In this document: positions 13,555-21,517 of the stretch, one piece after another
How the letters are laid out: the number at the start of each line of letters is the position of its first letter
Numbering within the stretch: the first letter of the stretch is position 1
NCBI GenBank assembly: GCA_963666365.2
Contig: CAXXNF010000002.1
Span: 224,001 to 288,000 of the forward strand
DNA: 64,000 nucleotides
From: Syntrophales bacterium
GTDB taxonomy: Bacteria; Desulfobacterota; Syntrophia; Syntrophales; UBA2210
Direction: 5' to 3'
Made by a program: the position numbers and the translations under genes
Notes under the pieces: generated by a model
The model's database searches: none
Told to the model about the DNA's origin: nothing
What the model saw: only the letters and a program-made list of their open reading frames with translations

Positions 13555-14439
13555 CTATCTTTTGGGGACGTAACGCAATGGATTTTGAGGCCGGTTGTTA
13601 TACCGCACTTCGAAATAGAGCGAATAGGCTTTCGTTTCTTTATTTTTTTCCACTGTGGCAATTGTACTTCCCTTCGTTACCCCATCGCCTGATGTTACGT
13701 TCATTGTATCGAGATTCGCATAGATGGTCAGATAATTTCTTCTGTGCTTTATGATTATGGTGTTCCCATAAAACTTGATCGGTGAGGCATGTATGACTTT
13801 TCCATCCTCCGAGGCCTTGACCGCCGGATTCTTTTTTGATTCGATCGTAATCCCGTTTGACCGGATTCCCTCAGGCGTCCGCCCGAATCGGGAAACAACT
13901 TTGCCGCTCAAAGGCCAGATAAAGTGAAGTTTTCCCGTTTTCAGGGAAGAGGGTTTTTCAGTTGTGACGGGGCTATCCGCTTCAACTTCCTTTTCCGGTG
14001 GAGGCCCGTCTTTTGTGAGCCTTTTTTCCTGCAGTGCGTCTTTTTCCCGAACAGGTTGAGATGACCGGGCAGGAGGAGCCGGCACCGGTCCGGATTTTTC
14101 TTTTGAGCCTCCTGATGCCACCGGAGAAGTGGAACGGGTGCGTCGTGATGTCTGTGCCTGCCTGTCATTCGATGCATCCAATTCGCGCACCTCTGTCGCG
14201 CCCGGAATGAACAGCACGCGATCAGCGGCAACGGCATCGGGATCGTCAATGCGGTTGGCAGCTGCAAGATCATCGATGGAGATATCATAGGTGCAGGCAA
14301 CCTGTGAGAGGGTTTCGCCTCTATTCAAGCGGTGATACACACCCTTGACGCCGCTGGGGGTCGCGCAGGCGGAAAGAAACAACAGTGCGCTGAGTAGGAA
14401 AATGAGAAAATAATGTGTTGGTCGCGCCATGTCGATCAT
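13555..14439 (-). CDS. nlpD: LysM/M23 lipoprotein, NlpD-like
   Basis: Lipobox LSAC, LysM (GETLSQVA..Y...LAAAN), FIWPLSG, degenerate M23 (NGITI, LYFEVR); follows pcm-yqaA. Confidence 0.8.
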   Translation of the reverse strand: MIDMARPTHYFLIFLLSALLFLSACATPSGVKGVYHRLNRGETLSQVACTYDISIDDLAAANRIDDPDAVAADRVLFIPGATEVRELDASNDRQAQTSRRTRSTSPVASGGSKEKSGPVPAPPARSSQPVREKDALQEKRLTKDGPPPEKEVEADSPVTTEKPSSLKTGKLHFIWPLSGKVVSRFGRTPEGIRSNGITIESKKNPAVKASEDGKVIHASPIKFYGNTIIIKHRRNYLTIYANLDTMNVTSGDGVTKGSTIATVEKNKETKAYSLYFEVRYNNRPQNPLRYVPKR

Positions 14440-15017
14440 AATAGAAATTTTACGATTAGAAACCCTCCAACAAGAAGGACGGTAAACAACAGGGTCATCA
14501 AATTAAAATATTTATCGATAAATAAGCGAATTCCTGCGCCGAACCGGTAGATCAGCCATGCGACGAGCAAAAAGCGGGCCGATCTGCTCAGAGCCGATGC
14601 CAGAAGGAAGACGGCAAAATTGATTTTAAAAGCCCCTCCGGCAATTGTAAAGATCTTATAGGGCAATGGAGTGAAGCCCGCAATCATGACGGCCCATGCA
14701 TTGTAGTGATTATAAAGCTCACCGATATAGGCGTACTTTTCCGTCAATCCATAGAAATGAATGATGCGAAGCCCCACCAGTTCCATGAACTGAAACCCGA
14801 TTGTATACCCTACAGCGCCTCCTGTAATGGAGCCGACGGAACATATCAGGGCGTAGCGGAACGATTTAGTCGGTATTGAGAGAGCCAGCGCAATCAGCAA
14901 TAGGTCGGGAGGAATCGGGAAAAAGCTCGACTCGGCAAAGGCCAGCAGAAAGAGCGCCCACGTTCCGTATGGCGTTTCGGCCCAGTGCAGGACCCAGTCA
15001 TACAGTTTCCGTATCAT
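14436..15017 (-). CDS. yqaA: YqaA/DedA family membrane protein
   Basis: AFAESSFFPIPPD and GFTPLPYK motifs. Confidence 0.88.
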   Translation of the reverse strand: MIRKLYDWVLHWAETPYGTWALFLLAFAESSFFPIPPDLLLIALALSIPTKSFRYALICSVGSITGGAVGYTIGFQFMELVGLRIIHFYGLTEKYAYIGELYNHYNAWAVMIAGFTPLPYKIFTIAGGAFKINFAVFLLASALSRSARFLLVAWLIYRFGAGIRLFIDKYFNLMTLLFTVLLVGGFLIVKFLL

Positions 15018-15025
15018 GTCAAAAA

Positions 15026-15679
15026 TCAGCCCTTCCAGCCGTGTTCCCCTATGAGACTTACGAAACGGCAGCCGCCAAGGCTTTCAGTTTGGGTCTTCTC
15101 GGGGTCATCGGAAAGGCGCGTGACTCTTGTAAGCGTCTGTGAGTTCCGGTCGCCGACGGGAATGACAAGACGACCGCCCGGCGCAAGCTGCTCTATGAAG
15201 GGCTGGGGAATTTCAGGCGCTCCTGCGGTGACGATGATTGCGTCAAAGGGCGCTTCATCCTTCCATCCGTAGGTGCCGTCACCCACTCTGATGAGCACAT
15301 TGTAACAATTCAACGAGTCGAGAATTTTTCGTGCACGGGAGGCAAGGCCGGCAATGCGTTCCACTGAAAACACCCTGTCGGAAAGCAGGGAGAGAATTGC
15401 CGCTTGATATCCCGATCCCGTGCCTATTTCAAGGACTTTCTCATAGCCCGTAAGTTCGAGCGCCTCCGTCATAAGCGCCACAATGTAAGGCTGAGAGATT
15501 GTTTGACGTTCGCCGATGGGAAGAGGATTGTCCGCGTAGGCCTGATTAATAATGCCCTCGTCGACAAAAAGATGACGCGGAATGGTTTCCATTGCCTTCA
15601 AAAGGGCGCTGTCGGTGATGCCGCGCGCTCGAATTTGCCCATCGACCATCTTGATCCTTTGATTTCTAAAGCGATTCAT
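15026..15679 (-). CDS. pcm: Protein-L-isoaspartate O-methyltransferase
   Basis: [52 protein letters not shown]. Confidence 0.95.
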
Positions 15680-16037
15680 CGTGCCTCGAAAGTTCCCTTC
15701 TCCTGGGGGGGATTTTGTACATTTCATCTACCCATGTGTGTCTGCGCAGGCCGAGCGCCTCCCGTGTCACGATAAGATAATAGCGTCTCAACTCGGCATA
15801 TGCCCGGGCTTGATTAAAGGCCTTAATTTCCCTGTTCAGATCGCGGTACAGGGGTGCGTCGTCTATTTCTTCCTGTTTCCGGGCGTTACGAATGCTATCA
15901 AGCTTTGTCTGTATTGATGTGCCTATATCTTCAAGTCGCGCCAAGGCATCGGACAGGCTTTTGCCCGCCCTGGATAGAACATCGGCCCTTTCTCGGAATA
16001 TTTCTTCCTGGGTCTTTTCGAGTCCTTCTTTGGTCAT
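15666..16037 (-). CDS. Hypothetical helical protein
   Basis: 123-aa ORF overlapping the pcm start, coiled-coil-like, [12 protein letters not shown] motif near the C-terminus. Confidence 0.65.
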
Positions 16038-16205
16038 TTTCCGCGTGAGCCCTTCTGCCGGCGGCCCGTTTAATGGTATACGCGACTATCACTAAAAAGT
16101 CCAGTTTTCAACCGAAAATATCCGCACTTCCGCCTTGTATGCATGTTTGACTTTCGAGAGGGGCTGTATTAGGTATAGCCAGTATCCGAGAGAAGGGAGA
16201 AACGA

Positions 16206-17783
16206 ATGACCGAGATGAAGACGGATGCCCTGTCCAACGCCGTCAGAAGGGCCTACGGAAAGGGAACCGATGATGAGATGCTTGAACCGCTGGTGCTTGC
16301 CGATGAGAACGGAAGCCCGAAGGGGCGCTTTCATAACGGCGATGCGGTGATATTTTATAATATCCGCGGAGAACGGGAAATCGAACTGACCAGAAGCCTT
16401 ACGGAAAAAAATTTTTGGGAGTTCCCCGTTCAGAGGGACCTTACGCTGCACTTTGCCACCATGATCGAATACCAGAAAGGATTGCCGGTGGCCGTGGGAT
16501 TCCCTCCCGAAGGTTCCGTTGAAGATACGCTCAGCGGAGTTCTTGCAAAAGAGGGGAAACGCCAGGTGAAAATTACGGAGGCGGAAAAAGCCATCCACCT
16601 GGGATATTTTTTTAACGGAAAACACTCCCGGCCCGAGCGGGGGGAAGAACGAATAGTCATTCCCACACGAAAAGATGTGGTGCTCTTTGATGAAGCGCCG
16701 GAGATGTCCATCGCCGCAATTACCGAAACCGTGCTTCAAAAGCTTGAAGACGACAAGAATGACTGTGTTGTGGTTAATTTCCCGAATGTCGATGTCGTGG
16801 GGCATATCGAAAACCGGGAAGCCATAATCGCGGCGGTTGAGGCAGTGGACAAGGCCCTGGGAGTGGTGGTCGATGCGGCGCTGAGCCTTCATATAACAAC
16901 GATCGTAACCGCCGATCACGGAACGGTGGAAAAATGGTTCTACCCCGATGGGAAAATCGATACGGGGCACACGGATTCGCCGGTTCCCTTTATTCTCGTG
17001 TCGGATCAAGACCTGCCGCCACTCAGATCCAAAGGGGAACTCGCCGATGTGGCGCCCACACTACTTGACCTTATGGGTATTGAAAAGCCGGCGGCCATGA
17101 CCGGCAGTTCACTTCTCTCCGGAGAATGCCGAAAGACACAAAGGGTGCTCTTGTTGATCCTCGATGGGTGGGGTCTGCACCGGAAGGGGCCGGAGAACTT
17201 GATTTTTCAGGCGCATACGCCCGTGATGGATCGTTTATGGAAGTTCTGCCCTTCTGCCGCCCTCGACGCAGCCGGTCGGGCAGTGGGACTGCCGTCTGGT
17301 ACGGTGGGCAATTCTGAAGTAGGTCACTTGCATATCGGCGCAGGCCGAAGGATATATTCGGACAGGGTGAAGATTAACGGGGCGATAGAGGATGGATCGT
17401 TTTTTTTCAATCGCGCCTTCAACGAGGTGATAGAAAAGTCGCTTCAGCAGGGATCCGCTCTTCATCTGATGGGCATTGTGTCGTTTTTCAGTTCTCACGG
17501 GTCCGTCGATCATCTGTTCGCGCTCATGGATCTTGCGAAGAGAAGAGGGGTGAAAAACCTCTTCGTGCACGCCATGCTTGGAAGGCGGGGAGAGAAGCCG
17601 GAAAGCGGCGCACTCTACATAGAAAAGATTGAAAGGCGCTGCCGGGAGCTACAGCTGGGGTCGGTGGCGTCAGTCATCGGGAGGTACTGGTCCATGGACC
17701 GTGAAGAAAACTGGGACAGGATTGAAAAAACATACAGGATGCTCGTGTACGGCGAAGGGACGGGCATTCCGGAAAGGGGGTAG
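16206..17783 (+). CDS. gpmI: 2,3-bisphosphoglycerate-independent phosphoglycerate mutase, circularly permuted
   Basis: All iPGM motifs present but in permuted order: FYNIRGER, EAEK, NVDVVGH, TADHG, GHT, LADVAPT, MTGSSL, then LILDGWG, GNSEVGH, GRYWSMDR. Confidence 0.88.
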   Translation: MTEMKTDALSNAVRRAYGKGTDDEMLEPLVLADENGSPKGRFHNGDAVIFYNIRGEREIELTRSLTEKNFWEFPVQRDLTLHFATMIEYQKGLPVAVGFPPEGSVEDTLSGVLAKEGKRQVKITEAEKAIHLGYFFNGKHSRPERGEERIVIPTRKDVVLFDEAPEMSIAAITETVLQKLEDDKNDCVVVNFPNVDVVGHIENREAIIAAVEAVDKALGVVVDAALSLHITTIVTADHGTVEKWFYPDGKIDTGHTDSPVPFILVSDQDLPPLRSKGELADVAPTLLDLMGIEKPAAMTGSSLLSGECRKTQRVLLLILDGWGLHRKGPENLIFQAHTPVMDRLWKFCPSAALDAAGRAVGLPSGTVGNSEVGHLHIGAGRRIYSDRVKINGAIEDGSFFFNRAFNEVIEKSLQQGSALHLMGIVSFFSSHGSVDHLFALMDLAKRRGVKNLFVHAMLGRRGEKPESGALYIEKIERRCRELQLGSVASVIGRYWSMDREENWDRIEKTYRMLVYGEGTGIPERG

Positions 17784-17786
17784 GTG

Positions 17787-18317
17787 ATGGAAGTAACAAT
17801 CAAAAACGCGACGGTGGCGCTGGTAGAGGGCAATATCACTGTCGAGGAAACCGACGCGATTGTAAATGCCGCCAATTCAGGGCTGCGAGGGGGCGGCGGT
17901 GTGGACGGAGCAATTCATCGTGCGGGAGGTCCCACAATCATGGAAGAGTGTCGTCGGATCGGCCATTGTCCTACGGGGGAGGCGGTGATTACGACGGGCG
18001 GAAACCTGAAGGCACGCTATGTAATTCATACGGTAGGTCCGATATATCGGGGTGGCGGACAAGGAGAGGCCGACCTGCTGGCACGCGCCTATCGAGAAAG
18101 CCTTCGAATGGCATCACGCAAGGGGCTTAAGAGTATCGCCTTTCCGGCAATCAGTGCGGGAGTGTACGGATATCCGCTCCACGAAGCCGCACATATCGCG
18201 CTGAAAACCACAATCGACTACCTGAAAGAGCACGAAGACATAGAAACGGCAAGGTTCGTCCTCTTTGACGCAACGACATATAATGCCTTTGTGGAAGAGT
18301 TGAAGCGCCTCTCTTAA
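17787..18317 (+). CDS. ymdB: Macro domain O-acetyl-ADP-ribose deacetylase
   Basis: GNIT..DAIVNAAN.GLRGGGGVDGAIHRAGG, VIHTVGP, AFPAISAGVYGYP. Confidence 0.92.
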   Translation: MEVTIKNATVALVEGNITVEETDAIVNAANSGLRGGGGVDGAIHRAGGPTIMEECRRIGHCPTGEAVITTGGNLKARYVIHTVGPIYRGGGQGEADLLARAYRESLRMASRKGLKSIAFPAISAGVYGYPLHEAAHIALKTTIDYLKEHEDIETARFVLFDATTYNAFVEELKRLS

Positions 18318-18373
18318 AGGGTCATGCGGCGGGAACAGGGTTGCGAATGAAGGGGAGTATTCAAACAGGAAAA

Positions 18374-21300
18374 ATGCGACGCCTCTGCAGGACAGTTTTT
18401 CTCTCAGCCTGCGTCATTGTTGTCGCAACCTGCGTGGCGGCGGCAGGCTATTATGCCTATCTAAACACGCACCCTGAGATATTGGCAAACTTTGTGGAAG
18501 AGGCCATTGCAAAACGCCTCGGAAAAGCGGTCACCGTTGAAAAGGCGACTGTGTTGCCGGGATTGTCACCGCAGGTGATACTCACCAATGTCACAATTGG
18601 TACGTCCGATGAGCTTTATCTGGCCGCCGAACACCTTGGCGCGCACCTTGCTTTGCATTACATCCTCTTTGGAAAAATAAAAATAGACCATATGGATGTG
18701 CGGCGTCCCGAGATACGGATTCCCTGGCACTGTCTGAAAGGGGGAGCGGCGATAGGTGATTTTGAAGCGCCGCCCCTGGACATAGCCGGGGGAAGAATAA
18801 TTATCACAAAGGAAAGCGCCCATTTGATTATTGACGAAGTGCAGGGATCAATCAGTAAGAATTCCGCGCAGCTGTGCATGCATATCTTGGGGGGAGAGGC
18901 CGCCATAAAGGTGTCGCGGGGGATTGTTTCAGTGCAGGGTACGCTCAATCTCAACAACATAGCGCTCGATCGGATTGATCCCCGGATGAATGGAACCTTC
19001 GATATTAAGTCGGAGTTCCAAGCCGGCATTTTTCGCAAGGTTCTTTCCGTTGCGGCGAATGCGAAGAATGTGCGGCTTCCCTGGCTCAAGGGCACGCTCG
19101 ATGAGGTGAACATCGCGCTCGACGGCAAGGGAACAGTGGGTGGTCTGAATATTGAAAATATCACCCTCAAGACGAAGGTCTTCAATATGGGGGGGAGCGG
19201 CAGGATTTCCCAGTGGACCGGCATAGGCGCGTTTCCCGATTCGCTTCTCGAACTCACCATGCAGTCCTCTGAGGTTGACTATGAAACGCTGGTGGACCTG
19301 CTCCCCCTGAAACATTTTCCCGAGTGGTTATCCCTGTTGCTGGATCGTCAGATTCGTGATGGAACGATTCATTTTTCCCGCGTCGCCTATAAGGGATCTT
19401 TGGGGGATATTTTCACCGCCGATGGTTTAATCAAGGGCCTGACGGTCCGGGCTGCGCTGAAAAATCAAAGTTTCGGCGCCGGTCATGACCCTTCCCGCGT
19501 CGAGCAGATTCAGGGGCAATGCCTGTTCTCAAAGGGACGTATTGCCTTTAGAGATCTGTCAGGGCGGGTCGGGACCTCGTCGATACACTCGGTCAACCTT
19601 GTGTTTTGGGATATCCTTCAGAAAGGGGTGCAGCTTTCCGTGGGCGTGGGTGCGGATATGCCCTTGAGTGATTTTATAACTGCCTGGAAGGCTGTAATGA
19701 CGCCACGGGAACTCTATGACCTGCTGGGGCCGATTTCACATGTTGAGGGAGGCAGAATTGCAGGCAGGGTTGACGCCTGCGCCGATACATCGAAGGGAGA
19801 TGCGACCCTGATCAGGGGAACGGCAACCCTTTCCGGGGCTCACTTCCGATGGCTCGGCTATGAAGTCGAGGCGTCAAAGGCGACGGCACACAGGGGATCA
19901 TATGATGAACCTCTGAAAATTCAGGCCGCCGGATCAGTCCGGGGGCATGTCATTGACTCCCTCGAACTCATCATTCCCCACCCCTTAAAGTCCCCGTCCT
20001 ATGTGTTTTCGCTGTGGACAAAGGAAATCTCCAACATGCCGGGCAGTGCCTTTTTTGAAGGTCATTCACCTATCCAGATCTCGGGAAGAGGCGAGGGGCC
20101 GCATATTGAGGGAGAGGTTCTTTTTTCGGCTGAATCGGTGAGGCTTCTCAGTGAGGGATATCGGCCGAAAGAGGGGATGATCGAGGGTCGAGGAAAGGTA
20201 AAGGCAACGCTTTGGCCGGAGACTGTTGTTGAATTACCTGAACTTGTTTTCACTATGGCGCCGGGAACCTTGAAGGTGCACGGTGCTGTCAAAGGATCTG
20301 CCGGTCGTTTTGGCTTGAAGGGAACGATCGATCTGGCACAGGTCGCTGTGACGGAAGGTGCGAGGTTTGAACCGGAAAAAGGGTTCATTGATGCGGATCT
20401 TGAGGTGACTTGGCGCGAAGAGACCGCGATTACCGGCACTCTCGCTTGTCGGAAGGCATGCCTTGTCCACCGCGGTGAACCACTCGAATTCGACGGTTCC
20501 CTGACGGTTGGGCGTGCCCTCCTTTCGTCTCCGCGCTTCAGCATCACATACCGCGATATGTCGGCGCAGATCGTCGGCGACCTTTCGTTGTCGACGCCGG
20601 AGTCATTTGAAGGGACGGTCAACGTCGACAGCCTCAAAATCGAAAAGAGCTGCGCAGGCAAGGGCGGATGGATGCCTCCCTGTGCCATAAAGAACACGAC
20701 CGTTGTCATCAGCCGTGCACAGGTGTACGGTATTCCCGTGGACAGCATAATCGCCCGTCTCGAGGGCGATGGTGAAAGGCTTTGCGTTATGGACCTCAGG
20801 GCAGATTTATTATCGGGAACCGTCACGGGCAAGGCGGACGTGAAAAAGACAGGCGGGATCGCCGTTGATCTCGATGTTTCGATGGAAAAAATCGACATAG
20901 GAACACTGCTCACTGCCATGTATCCGGAAGAGCCGAAGTTTGACGGGACGGCGACTATCAAGGGACGTCTATGGGGTCCTGTCGATTTGATAAATGGAGA
21001 TATATCATTTGCTGCCGCGGAAGGGCGCATCAAAAAGTATGCGCTTCTTTCGAAAATCTTTGCAGTGCTCAACCCCTACAAGATAATCAGAAGCGGTGAA
21101 ATTGATTTTGCAGGCGAAGGATTTTCATATAATAAGATGGCAGCAACCTTTCAAATCAGAGATGGCATCCTGAGAAGCGATGACTTTTATTTCGACAGCG
21201 ATTCCCTTCAGGCCTCTGCGGCGGGCAGCTATCAGACGAACGACAAAAAAATTGACATGACCGTCATAGTGCAGCCTCTTGAAACGATAGATAAGATAAT

Positions 21301-21517
21301 CGGCCTTATTCCCATTGTGGGCTGGATTGTCACCGGTGAGAAAAACCGATTTGTAGTCATCTGCCTCAAGGTGCAAGGCAGCGCAGACAACCCTTCAATC
21401 ACACTGGCCCCTGTAGATACGATATCGGAACCGGTAACAGGCATTCTGCTGAGAATTCTGAAGCTGCCCGTGGAGATTGTAAGGAATCCCCGAAATATGA
21501 TTCCTTCTCTCAAATAA
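18374..21517 (+). CDS. AsmA-like/YhdP family membrane-anchored protein
   Basis: N-terminal TM, long beta-rich body, C-terminal AsmA_2-type PLETIDKIIGLIPIVGWIVTG; start may be 18347. Confidence 0.75.
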   Translation: MRRLCRTVFLSACVIVVATCVAAAGYYAYLNTHPEILANFVEEAIAKRLGKAVTVEKATVLPGLSPQVILTNVTIGTSDELYLAAEHLGAHLALHYILFGKIKIDHMDVRRPEIRIPWHCLKGGAAIGDFEAPPLDIAGGRIIITKESAHLIIDEVQGSISKNSAQLCMHILGGEAAIKVSRGIVSVQGTLNLNNIALDRIDPRMNGTFDIKSEFQAGIFRKVLSVAANAKNVRLPWLKGTLDEVNIALDGKGTVGGLNIENITLKTKVFNMGGSGRISQWTGIGAFPDSLLELTMQSSEVDYETLVDLLPLKHFPEWLSLLLDRQIRDGTIHFSRVAYKGSLGDIFTADGLIKGLTVRAALKNQSFGAGHDPSRVEQIQGQCLFSKGRIAFRDLSGRVGTSSIHSVNLVFWDILQKGVQLSVGVGADMPLSDFITAWKAVMTPRELYDLLGPISHVEGGRIAGRVDACADTSKGDATLIRGTATLSGAHFRWLGYEVEASKATAHRGSYDEPLKIQAAGSVRGHVIDSLELIIPHPLKSPSYVFSLWTKEISNMPGSAFFEGHSPIQISGRGEGPHIEGEVLFSAESVRLLSEGYRPKEGMIEGRGKVKATLWPETVVELPELVFTMAPGTLKVHGAVKGSAGRFGLKGTIDLAQVAVTEGARFEPEKGFIDADLEVTWREETAITGTLACRKACLVHRGEPLEFDGSLTVGRALLSSPRFSITYRDMSAQIVGDLSLSTPESFEGTVNVDSLKIEKSCAGKGGWMPPCAIKNTTVVISRAQVYGIPVDSIIARLEGDGERLCVMDLRADLLSGTVTGKADVKKTGGIAVDLDVSMEKIDIGTLLTAMYPEEPKFDGTATIKGRLWGPVDLINGDISFAAAEGRIKKYALLSKIFAVLNPYKIIRSGEIDFAGEGFSYNKMAATFQIRDGILRSDDFYFDSDSLQASAAGSYQTNDKKIDMTVIVQPLETIDKIIGLIPIVGWIVTGEKNRFVVICLKVQGSADNPSITLAPVDTISEPVTGILLRILKLPVEIVRNPRNMIPSLK

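Follow-up and report, generated by a model that had tools for sequence, protein, structure and literature searches.

The window analysed here is a 64,000-nt stretch of the genome of a Syntrophales bacterium (contig CAXXNF010000002.1, positions 224,001 to 288,000), and on its forward strand a gene at 16206-17783 encodes a protein of 525 residues, P0001, that is a genuine, selected circular permutant of the two-domain fold of cofactor-independent phosphoglycerate mutase (iPGM or GpmI). With its two domains, canonical iPGM is a textbook enzyme, and in parasites it is a drug target; its transferase domain is inserted into its phosphatase domain. The permuted order of the P0001 chain is certain, and the nesting of the two domains is inverted in it. 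An earlier note, made from the sequence alone, called the gene a phosphoglycerate mutase (PGM); the permuted iPGM architecture stands, but the PGM role is in doubt because the canonical pocket residue D154 has been lost, the canonical sequence DGRD has become GRRG, and a second predicted PGM is usual in genomes that possess the permuted gene.

The architecture is evident from comparison with structurally characterized enzymes. A phmmer search of all PDB sequences returned 11 distinct chains, every one of them an iPGM, with the enzyme of Geobacillus stearothermophilus (1EJJ, the reference used throughout) as the best match (E = 2.6e-115 over the whole sequence). The match is in swapped order, residues 313-519 of P0001 aligning with 5-211 of the 1EJJ chain and residues 13-304 with 220-509, at approximately 38-40% identity in each half. 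Both components of the two-domain fold, the alkaline-phosphatase-like Metalloenzyme domain (PF01676, 196 bits) and the iPGM_N transferase domain (PF06415, 189 bits), are present in P0001, each of them split into two stretches; the iPGM_N stretch at residues 390-518 spans just positions 1-129 of the 217 in the profile. P0001 scores 413 against NF003897, for which the cut-off is 862. The collinear canonical order (N-terminal phosphatase part, transferase, C-terminal phosphatase part) was not found in P0001 in its alignments to 1EJJ, TIGR01307 or Pfam. The cut in the chain falls within the transferase domain, between canonical residue 211 (at YGEG) and residue 220, and the junction is at residues 305-312. 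The proposal of the earlier note that the old termini were fused through a short linker while new termini opened in the transferase domain is thus borne out by the half-by-half alignment, with its two 1EJJ stretches in swapped order and its Pfam domains each in two stretches. The ORF (open reading frame) listing likewise agrees with its single uninterrupted frame of 525 residues, the motifs are where it placed them (NIRGER at 52-57, MTGSSLL at 298-304, SGECRKTQR at 305-313 or nucleotides 17118-17144, and YGEG at 515-518), and its spacings between catalytic residues are correct (D-S 50, S-H 61, D-D 41, H-H 17). The gene is divided as follows.

16206..17783, + strand: whole gene, circularly permuted iPGM-family protein P0001; a single unbroken ORF of 525 aa plus stop
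16193..16199, + strand: Shine-Dalgarno-like AAGGGAG, found by inspection of the sequence, with the ATG 6 nt downstream
16206..16241, + strand: new N-terminus, residues 1-12, beyond the 1EJJ alignment; residues 1-5 are disordered in the structural model (pLDDT <50)
16242..17117, + strand: residues 13-304, corresponding to canonical 220-509 (phmmer, 201 bits)
17118..17141, + strand: junction of the ancestral C-terminus to the ancestral N-terminus, residues 305-312, the gap between the two 1EJJ stretches
17142..17762, + strand: residues 313-519, corresponding to canonical 5-211 (phmmer, 189 bits, ungapped)
17313..17315, + strand: codon of S370, which corresponds to the phosphoserine nucleophile S62 and is invariant in all aligned permuted sequences
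17580..17591, + strand: G459-R460-R461-G462 replacing canonical D151-G152-R153-D154, the main pocket change (alignment with 132 canonical representatives)
17763..17783, + strand: new C-terminal tail, residues 520-525, and TAG stop (sequence; end of the alignment)

Several shorter ORFs overlap the gene on the opposite strand and are taken as chance, since the coding signal of the + frame is strong.

Residues 13-304 begin with the last part of the transferase domain and go on to the C-terminal part of the phosphatase domain; they hold R54, R57, K128, D196, H200, D237, H238 and H255. Residues 313-519 begin with the N-terminal part of the phosphatase domain, which contains D320 and S370, and go on to the first part of the transferase domain, which contains H431, R461, R493 and R499. 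The limits of the canonical domains are taken to be approximately 1-76 and 311-511 for the phosphatase and 77-310 for the transferase. From these limits and the permuted order (transferase part 2, phosphatase part 2, linker, phosphatase part 1, transferase part 1) it follows that the nesting is inverted: the transferase domain is split around a contiguous phosphatase domain, and the chain still makes both hinge crossings. A model built by AlphaFold2 from an alignment of 120 sequences has a mean predicted local distance difference test score (pLDDT) of 90.0 and a predicted template-modelling score (pTM) of 0.87, the junction being modelled confidently (pLDDT 92 and 96 for blocks within 301-320) and values below 50 being confined to residues 1-5 and 496-500. 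When the model was compared with the PDB by Foldseek, which is a sequential aligner, iPGM structures alone were returned at E <= 0.001, in every row to rank 22, with about 296 aligned columns and template-modelling (TM) scores of 0.36-0.52; a fit of one half only is as expected for a predicted structure that is permuted.

As far as sequence data can show, there is practically no chance that the swapped order arose artificially from misassembly or a chimeric contig, or that the gene is a decaying pseudogene, and nothing was found in favour of either. The ORF is intact, with a ribosome-binding site, and its catalytic residues are invariant among relatives. A search of a collection of 5.8 billion proteins, made with the whole protein and with each half separately, yielded 120 best relatives that are 61-88% identical over 97-100% of the query, and the database search for proteins of the same domain order that the earlier note had advised found the halves in the permuted order, collinear with P0001, in 120/120 of them, from many independent assemblies, closed genomes included. 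The window's order was sampled with 201 genomes. A collinear match over the full length (E <= 7e-200, 59-67% identity) was obtained in 93 of these, and partial matches of the permuted type, at contig ends or broken, in another 14, for a total of 107/201; when 401 genomes of the phylum were sampled, a permuted gene of 48-61% identity was also present in 20 genomes from outside the order, under four other family codes. A scan with one genome per species gave 113 relatives, of which 80 were kept as belonging to records of Syntrophales, Syntrophaceae, Smithella, Syntrophus or 'Deltaproteobacteria', one of these being the permuted gene (L068) in the closed genome of the cultured Syntrophus buswellii DM-2. 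The junction is bridged by contigs from public runs of three studies: one contig is identical across 16000-18000 and may be the source of the window; a 12.4-kb contig from a different study covers the whole 16000-18000 stretch with 63 differences and zero gaps; and contigs of 744 nt from the third study extend across 16965-17708. The linker region around 17100-17170, at which the earlier note had asked for coverage, is therefore spanned in three studies, and misassembly of the junction is excluded.

The sequence of the junction linker is not conserved and its length varies, the distance from MTGxS to ILDGWG being 15-26 residues in 103/120 relatives; the other 17 lack one of these motifs. In two genes of the same order (G010:C6:64386-66092 and G095:C36:13564-15261) the halves are in one open frame with approximately 130-150 nt extra between them, which suggests that about 44 residues are inserted at the linker. 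In-frame stop codons occur inside the permuted gene in a few genomes (G122:C3:134909-136249; G078:C316:1381-2940; G281; G405), and may represent pseudogenes, sequencing errors or recoding.

More distant relatives were sampled as the best 150 of 1.84 billion representatives at 50% identity, among which the permuted type accounts for 11 (two of them fragments), with 38-56% identity to the query; one is partial and 138 are canonical. All seven counterparts of the metal ligands and the nucleophile (canonical D12, S62, D403, H407, D444, H445 and H462) are present in P0001 as D320, S370, D196, H200, D237, H238 and H255, respectively. The residues that presumably bind the substrate of canonical iPGM are H123, R153, D154, R185, R191, R261, R264 and K336; seven of these eight positions are kept, as H431, R461, R493, R499, R54, R57 and K128, the exception being D154, which is replaced by G462. 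Thus, of the fifteen canonical residues listed in the earlier note, fourteen have counterparts, and for D154, to which it gave none, the position is that of G462. The fourteen residues of P0001 that it named are all present and are invariant in the 120 relatives, in an alignment with a mean column identity of 63%; the same set, with the exception of R461, is invariant in ten deep permuted representatives. Its statement that every metal ligand and the phosphoserine have been kept therefore holds for both sets of sequences.

When the halves of 157 proteins were aligned separately and then concatenated, 78 columns proved to have the same residue in at least 90% of 132 canonical representatives; the main permuted clade keeps this residue in 65 of the columns and has switched consensus in 10. 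Canonical D151, G152 and D154 are D, G and D in 98-99% of the canonical representatives (98% for D154), and the corresponding positions of the main permuted clade are G (94%), R (100%) and G (100%). Further switches are D263 to E56, N447 to T240, and the glycine after H407 to E202; the remaining four are T to G133, S to T154, A to P193 and A to T124. The deep permuted proteins P0124, P0128 and P0133 have the canonical residues at all ten switched positions, and others have either serine (P0138, P0178, P0208) or glycine (P0139, P0212) at the position of D154. Judged from these sequences, the permutation and the pocket change are separable, because P0124, P0128 and P0133 are permuted and yet canonical at the ten positions.

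Other mutases were sought in the same genomes. The genome to which the window belongs (4.0 Mb in 2 contigs) was not found to encode a canonical GpmI; it encodes an NF003160-type ApgM (565 bits, the cut-off being 468) and a 220-residue histidine-phosphatase protein that falls under every curated cut-off. It also has a second ApgM-family gene (ORF 1456-2697 on the - strand of locus L003, G000:C2:892911-897104), directly downstream of a homoserine dehydrogenase gene, that passes the cut-offs of both NF003242 ('cofactor-independent PGM') and TIGR02535 ('proposed homoserine kinase'); the true role of this type of ApgM bears on the identity of the PGM in genomes that have neither NF003160 ApgM nor GpmA. 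The 201 genomes of the order were scanned for NF003160 ApgM (E <= 1e-80, found in 97 genomes) and for GpmA (NF010713; E <= 1e-40, found in 54 genomes), and the results were tabulated against GpmI, the status of canonical GpmI being that of the matches listed in the scan of the same genomes for the permuted gene.

Permuted-type genomes (n = 107): ApgM only, 47; GpmA only, 25; both, 11; neither, 24
Genomes with canonical GpmI only, among the matches listed (n = 33): ApgM only, 0; GpmA only, 4; both, 0; neither, 29
Genomes with neither form of GpmI seen, among the matches listed (n = 61): ApgM only, 36; GpmA only, 11; both, 3; neither, 11

ApgM or GpmA thus accompanies the permuted gene in 83/107 genomes, and of the 24 permuted-type genomes that lack both, at least eight have a canonical GpmI. 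When the genomes are grouped by genus (g1-g31), at least half of the genomes have a second type of PGM in 18/22 permuted-type genera versus 0/3 canonical-only genera. The partner differs between lineages: it is ApgM in families f16 and f21, canonical GpmI in genus g41, and GpmA in family f4, where the permuted gene is found in 18/19 genomes, ApgM in 0/19 and GpmA in 16/19 (true GpmA at 416-429 bits in five genomes). Outside the order, all five permuted-type genomes tested possess ApgM-family proteins, two of them also GpmA and one a canonical GpmI; in G543 a canonical copy exists beside the permuted gene. ApgM is likely to be the housekeeping PGM in many permuted-type genomes. ApgM or GpmA can suffice alone, because whole genera that keep one or the other (g5, g16, g19, g25) were not found to have the permuted gene.

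Since the ligands of the binuclear metal site, the serine nucleophile and the cage of arginine, lysine and histidine residues are invariant, one may infer that P0001 is catalytically competent by the phosphoserine mechanism of iPGM. The chain starts in the middle of the transferase domain (canonical residue ~212), takes in the C-terminal portion of the phosphatase domain, crosses the new short linker at the site of the old termini, and proceeds by way of the N-terminal portion of the phosphatase domain to its end within the first part of the transferase (canonical residue ~211). The two domains would close on a phosphorylated acid, and phosphate would pass to the metal-activated serine and then back to the substrate. 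The changes of DGRD to GRRG, of D263 to E and of N447 to T, among others, remodel the glycerate side of the pocket. Because of this remodelling, and because the genome is usually shared with ApgM, GpmA or canonical GpmI, the interpretation favoured here, with chances that look evenly balanced, is that P0001 may be an active iPGM-fold phosphotransferase that serves as an auxiliary or re-specialised phosphomutase or phosphatase and not as the housekeeping mutase of 3-phosphoglycerate (3PG) and 2-phosphoglycerate (2PG). A bolder version, put forward tentatively and given slightly less credence than disbelief, is that the permuted clade constitutes a new enzyme that is not a PGM, and would, in syntrophic and other anaerobic bacteria, move or remove phosphate on a different metabolite that is more anionic or bulkier, with ApgM, GpmA or canonical GpmI performing the glycolytic step; after the inversion of domain nesting, the glycerate pocket would have lost two aspartates and gained one arginine.

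A number of observations weigh against such re-specialisation and would fit better with an ordinary 3PG/2PG mutase (EC 5.4.2.12) in permuted form, kept as a redundant or condition-specific isozyme beside ApgM or GpmA, which is a serious possibility although a somewhat doubtful one. The metal and nucleophile set is complete and seven of the eight substrate-binding residues are invariant; 65 of the 78 positions that are universally conserved in iPGM are unchanged in the main permuted clade; and the GpmI equivalog model TIGR01307 gives 495.5 bits, above its cut-off of 330.65 only as the sum over two stretches. The role of D154 in substrate binding is presumed from annotation, and the invariant E463 adjacent to G462 could be a stand-in for it. 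P0124, P0128 and P0133, being canonical at the ten switched positions, indicate that permutation alone need not alter the active site. The neighbourhood of the gene suggests no alternative pathway, either in the 80 loci of the order or in six loci outside it where the neighbours are unrelated housekeeping genes. In four to five genomes no other PGM is recognised except a PRK04200-type homologue; G019 (100% complete), G024 (92%), G067 (94%) and G096 (88%) have no cofactor-dependent PGM (dPGM) above cut-off, and the sole other candidate found in them is an ApgM homologue of the PRK04200/TIGR02535 type, which may be a homoserine kinase, so that the permuted enzyme may be the PGM in these four. 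The genomes of one order are related to each other, their counts are not independent, and many of the genomes are incomplete. Moreover, co-occurrence with a second PGM does not prove a different function, because redundant PGMs are common in bacteria, E. coli having both GpmA and GpmM (Foster et al. 2010, PMC2964296). The survey table in the supplement of the same paper (PMC2964296) records one match of the E. coli-type iPGM in Syntrophus aciditrophicus SB, and predicts 'I'.

Against an unchanged PGM function are the loss of D154 and D151 and the gain of an arginine in the pocket, which are fixed across the clade, the usual co-occurrence of another PGM, unlike canonical GpmI in the same order, and the four genera that keep ApgM or GpmA and were not found to have the permuted gene. 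The remodelled pocket might instead suggest a protein derived from iPGM that is catalytically dead or has a purely regulatory or binding function, and the confidence of the model is low near residues 496-500, which include R499. This is very improbable: a dead enzyme is not expected, because the seven metal and nucleophile residues and the Arg/Lys/His cage have been kept invariant in 120 relatives whose mean column identity is 63%.

The number of origins of the permutation was addressed with several phylogenetic methods. In a FastTree analysis the main group is joined in a supported clade (99) by P0121, P0138, P0139, P0178, P0208 and P0212, and the placement of P0124 and of P0128/P0133 in the permuted clade varies with the model. 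The FastTree phylogeny of 157 rows implies three label changes, none of them forced by supported branches; a quick IQ-TREE search of 71 rows under LG+G4 puts all 17 permuted rows on one side of a branch (Shimodaira-Hasegawa-like approximate likelihood ratio test, SH-aLRT, 96); a quick tree under LG+C20 with posterior mean site frequencies (PMSF) has two changes, unsupported; and in a longer search under LG+F+G4 the permuted rows are not on one branch. Constraining the permuted rows to be monophyletic cost 9.5 log-likelihood units, with p = 0.449 in the approximately unbiased (AU) test, the constrained and free searches both being unfinished. FastTree, IQ-TREE and the AU comparison do not reject a single origin, and they do not demonstrate several origins at the same loop. 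A search among longer relatives for a tandem-duplicate intermediate, which is weak evidence, returned three proteins, all of them canonical iPGM fusions and none a tandem duplicate. By precomputed Pfam lists, P0390 (1725 aa) combines enolase, iPGM and PEP-utilising/PPDK-type (phosphoenolpyruvate-utilising, pyruvate phosphate dikinase-type) domains, P0392 (947 aa) is a fusion of phosphoglycerate kinase and iPGM, and P0391 (1205 aa) joins iPGM with unrelated NTPase-type domains. A profile of eight deep permuted sequences (P0124, P0128, P0133, P0138, P0139, P0178, P0208 and P0212) was run against the protein collection and set aside: one of 120 listed matches was collinear (P0124 itself) and 119 covered 55-58% of the query, and the profile is uninformative because canonical enzymes rank equally high, both of their halves scoring.

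Directly downstream of the permuted gene is the following gene, with which it is probably co-transcribed.

17784..18317, + strand: macro-domain gene of the O-acetyl-ADP-ribose deacetylase family (NF001664, 220 bits, cut-off 200); its GTG/ATG start abuts the TAG stop of the permuted gene

The macro-domain gene is found at this position in 72/80 of the related loci of the order and in 0/6 loci outside it, and a general functional link between the two genes was rejected since the pairing is absent from 6/6 of the latter. Upstream on the other strand, loci of the order have pcm (74/80), a small conserved ORF (71/80) and a LysM/M23 gene (71/80). In the window a cluster at 13555-16037 on the - strand, divergent from the permuted gene, encodes a LysM/M23 peptidase-like protein, a DedA-like membrane protein, Pcm (protein-L-isoaspartate O-methyltransferase, 261 bits) and a product of 123 aa that matches no NCBIfam family; the names LysM/M23 and DedA come from reading of the translations only. 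The cluster is reminiscent of the pcm-nlpD stationary-phase cluster of proteobacteria. Outside the order, none of pcm, the small ORF, the LysM/M23 gene and the macro-domain gene was found near the permuted gene in six loci; the genes around it there have no relation to these (3-hydroxyacyl-CoA dehydrogenase, DUF72, TctC, DHquinase II, Ddl, Lon and TPR proteins). Downstream of the macro-domain gene in the window, at 18341-21517 on the + strand, is a 1058-aa ORF with an N-terminal hydrophobic segment.

Among known systems, the closest is canonical GpmI/GpmM (TIGR01307; PF01676 with PF06415; 1EJJ, 1O98, 2IFY, 4MY4), which has in common with P0001 the two domains, the metal ligands, the serine nucleophile and seven of the eight positions of the Arg/Lys/His substrate cage, but in P0001 the chain is rotated (220-509, then 5-211), the split falls in the transferase domain and leaves the phosphatase domain contiguous, and DGRD (151-154) is GRRG. 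ApgM (TIGR00306; NF003160) and its PRK04200/TIGR02535 'proposed homoserine kinase' relatives, both types of which are encoded in the window's own genome, are of the same metalloenzyme superfamily but constitute a separate family of proteins of about 400 aa that are not permuted relative to their own family; TIGR00306 matches P0001 with 39.3 bits, below its cut-off of 320, at residues 173-268 only, which are the shared phosphatase core. Phosphopentomutase (DeoB) and other mutases of the alkaline phosphatase superfamily give weak matches to the core only (NF009049, 35.6 bits; TIGR01696, 18.2 bits). DeoB-type mutases share the metal-binding core, the phospho-enzyme mechanism and an inserted cap domain with iPGM, from which they differ in the cap domain itself and in their substrate. 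Natural circular permutants of other enzyme families have the same fold with a rotated chain, their termini joined where they are close in space; in iPGM, by comparison, the permutation inverts which domain nests in which.

The earlier note knew of no description of the architecture, and no paper on a circularly permuted iPGM was found in the searchable literature, outside of which are most subscription journals. Foster et al. 2010 (PMC2964296) refer to three archaeal-type iPGMs in S. aciditrophicus, and their main text has no word beginning with 'permut'. According to Yu et al. 2017 (PMC5382265), iPGMs are monomeric two-domain enzymes with two hinge peptides between the domains.

From a natural iPGM whose domains are nested the other way round, it would follow that closure about the hinges can operate with a rotated chain, and such an enzyme provides a test case for how circular permutation arises and whether new specificity becomes accessible by it. 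Hundreds of genomes carry the permuted gene under inconsistent names ('alkaline phosphatase family protein', 'sulfatase-like hydrolase/transferase' and 'iPGM'), the NCBI pipeline giving relatives the first or the second of these and not GpmI. Metabolic reconstructions of syntrophs that count the permuted gene as PGM may be wrong, or right by accident only.

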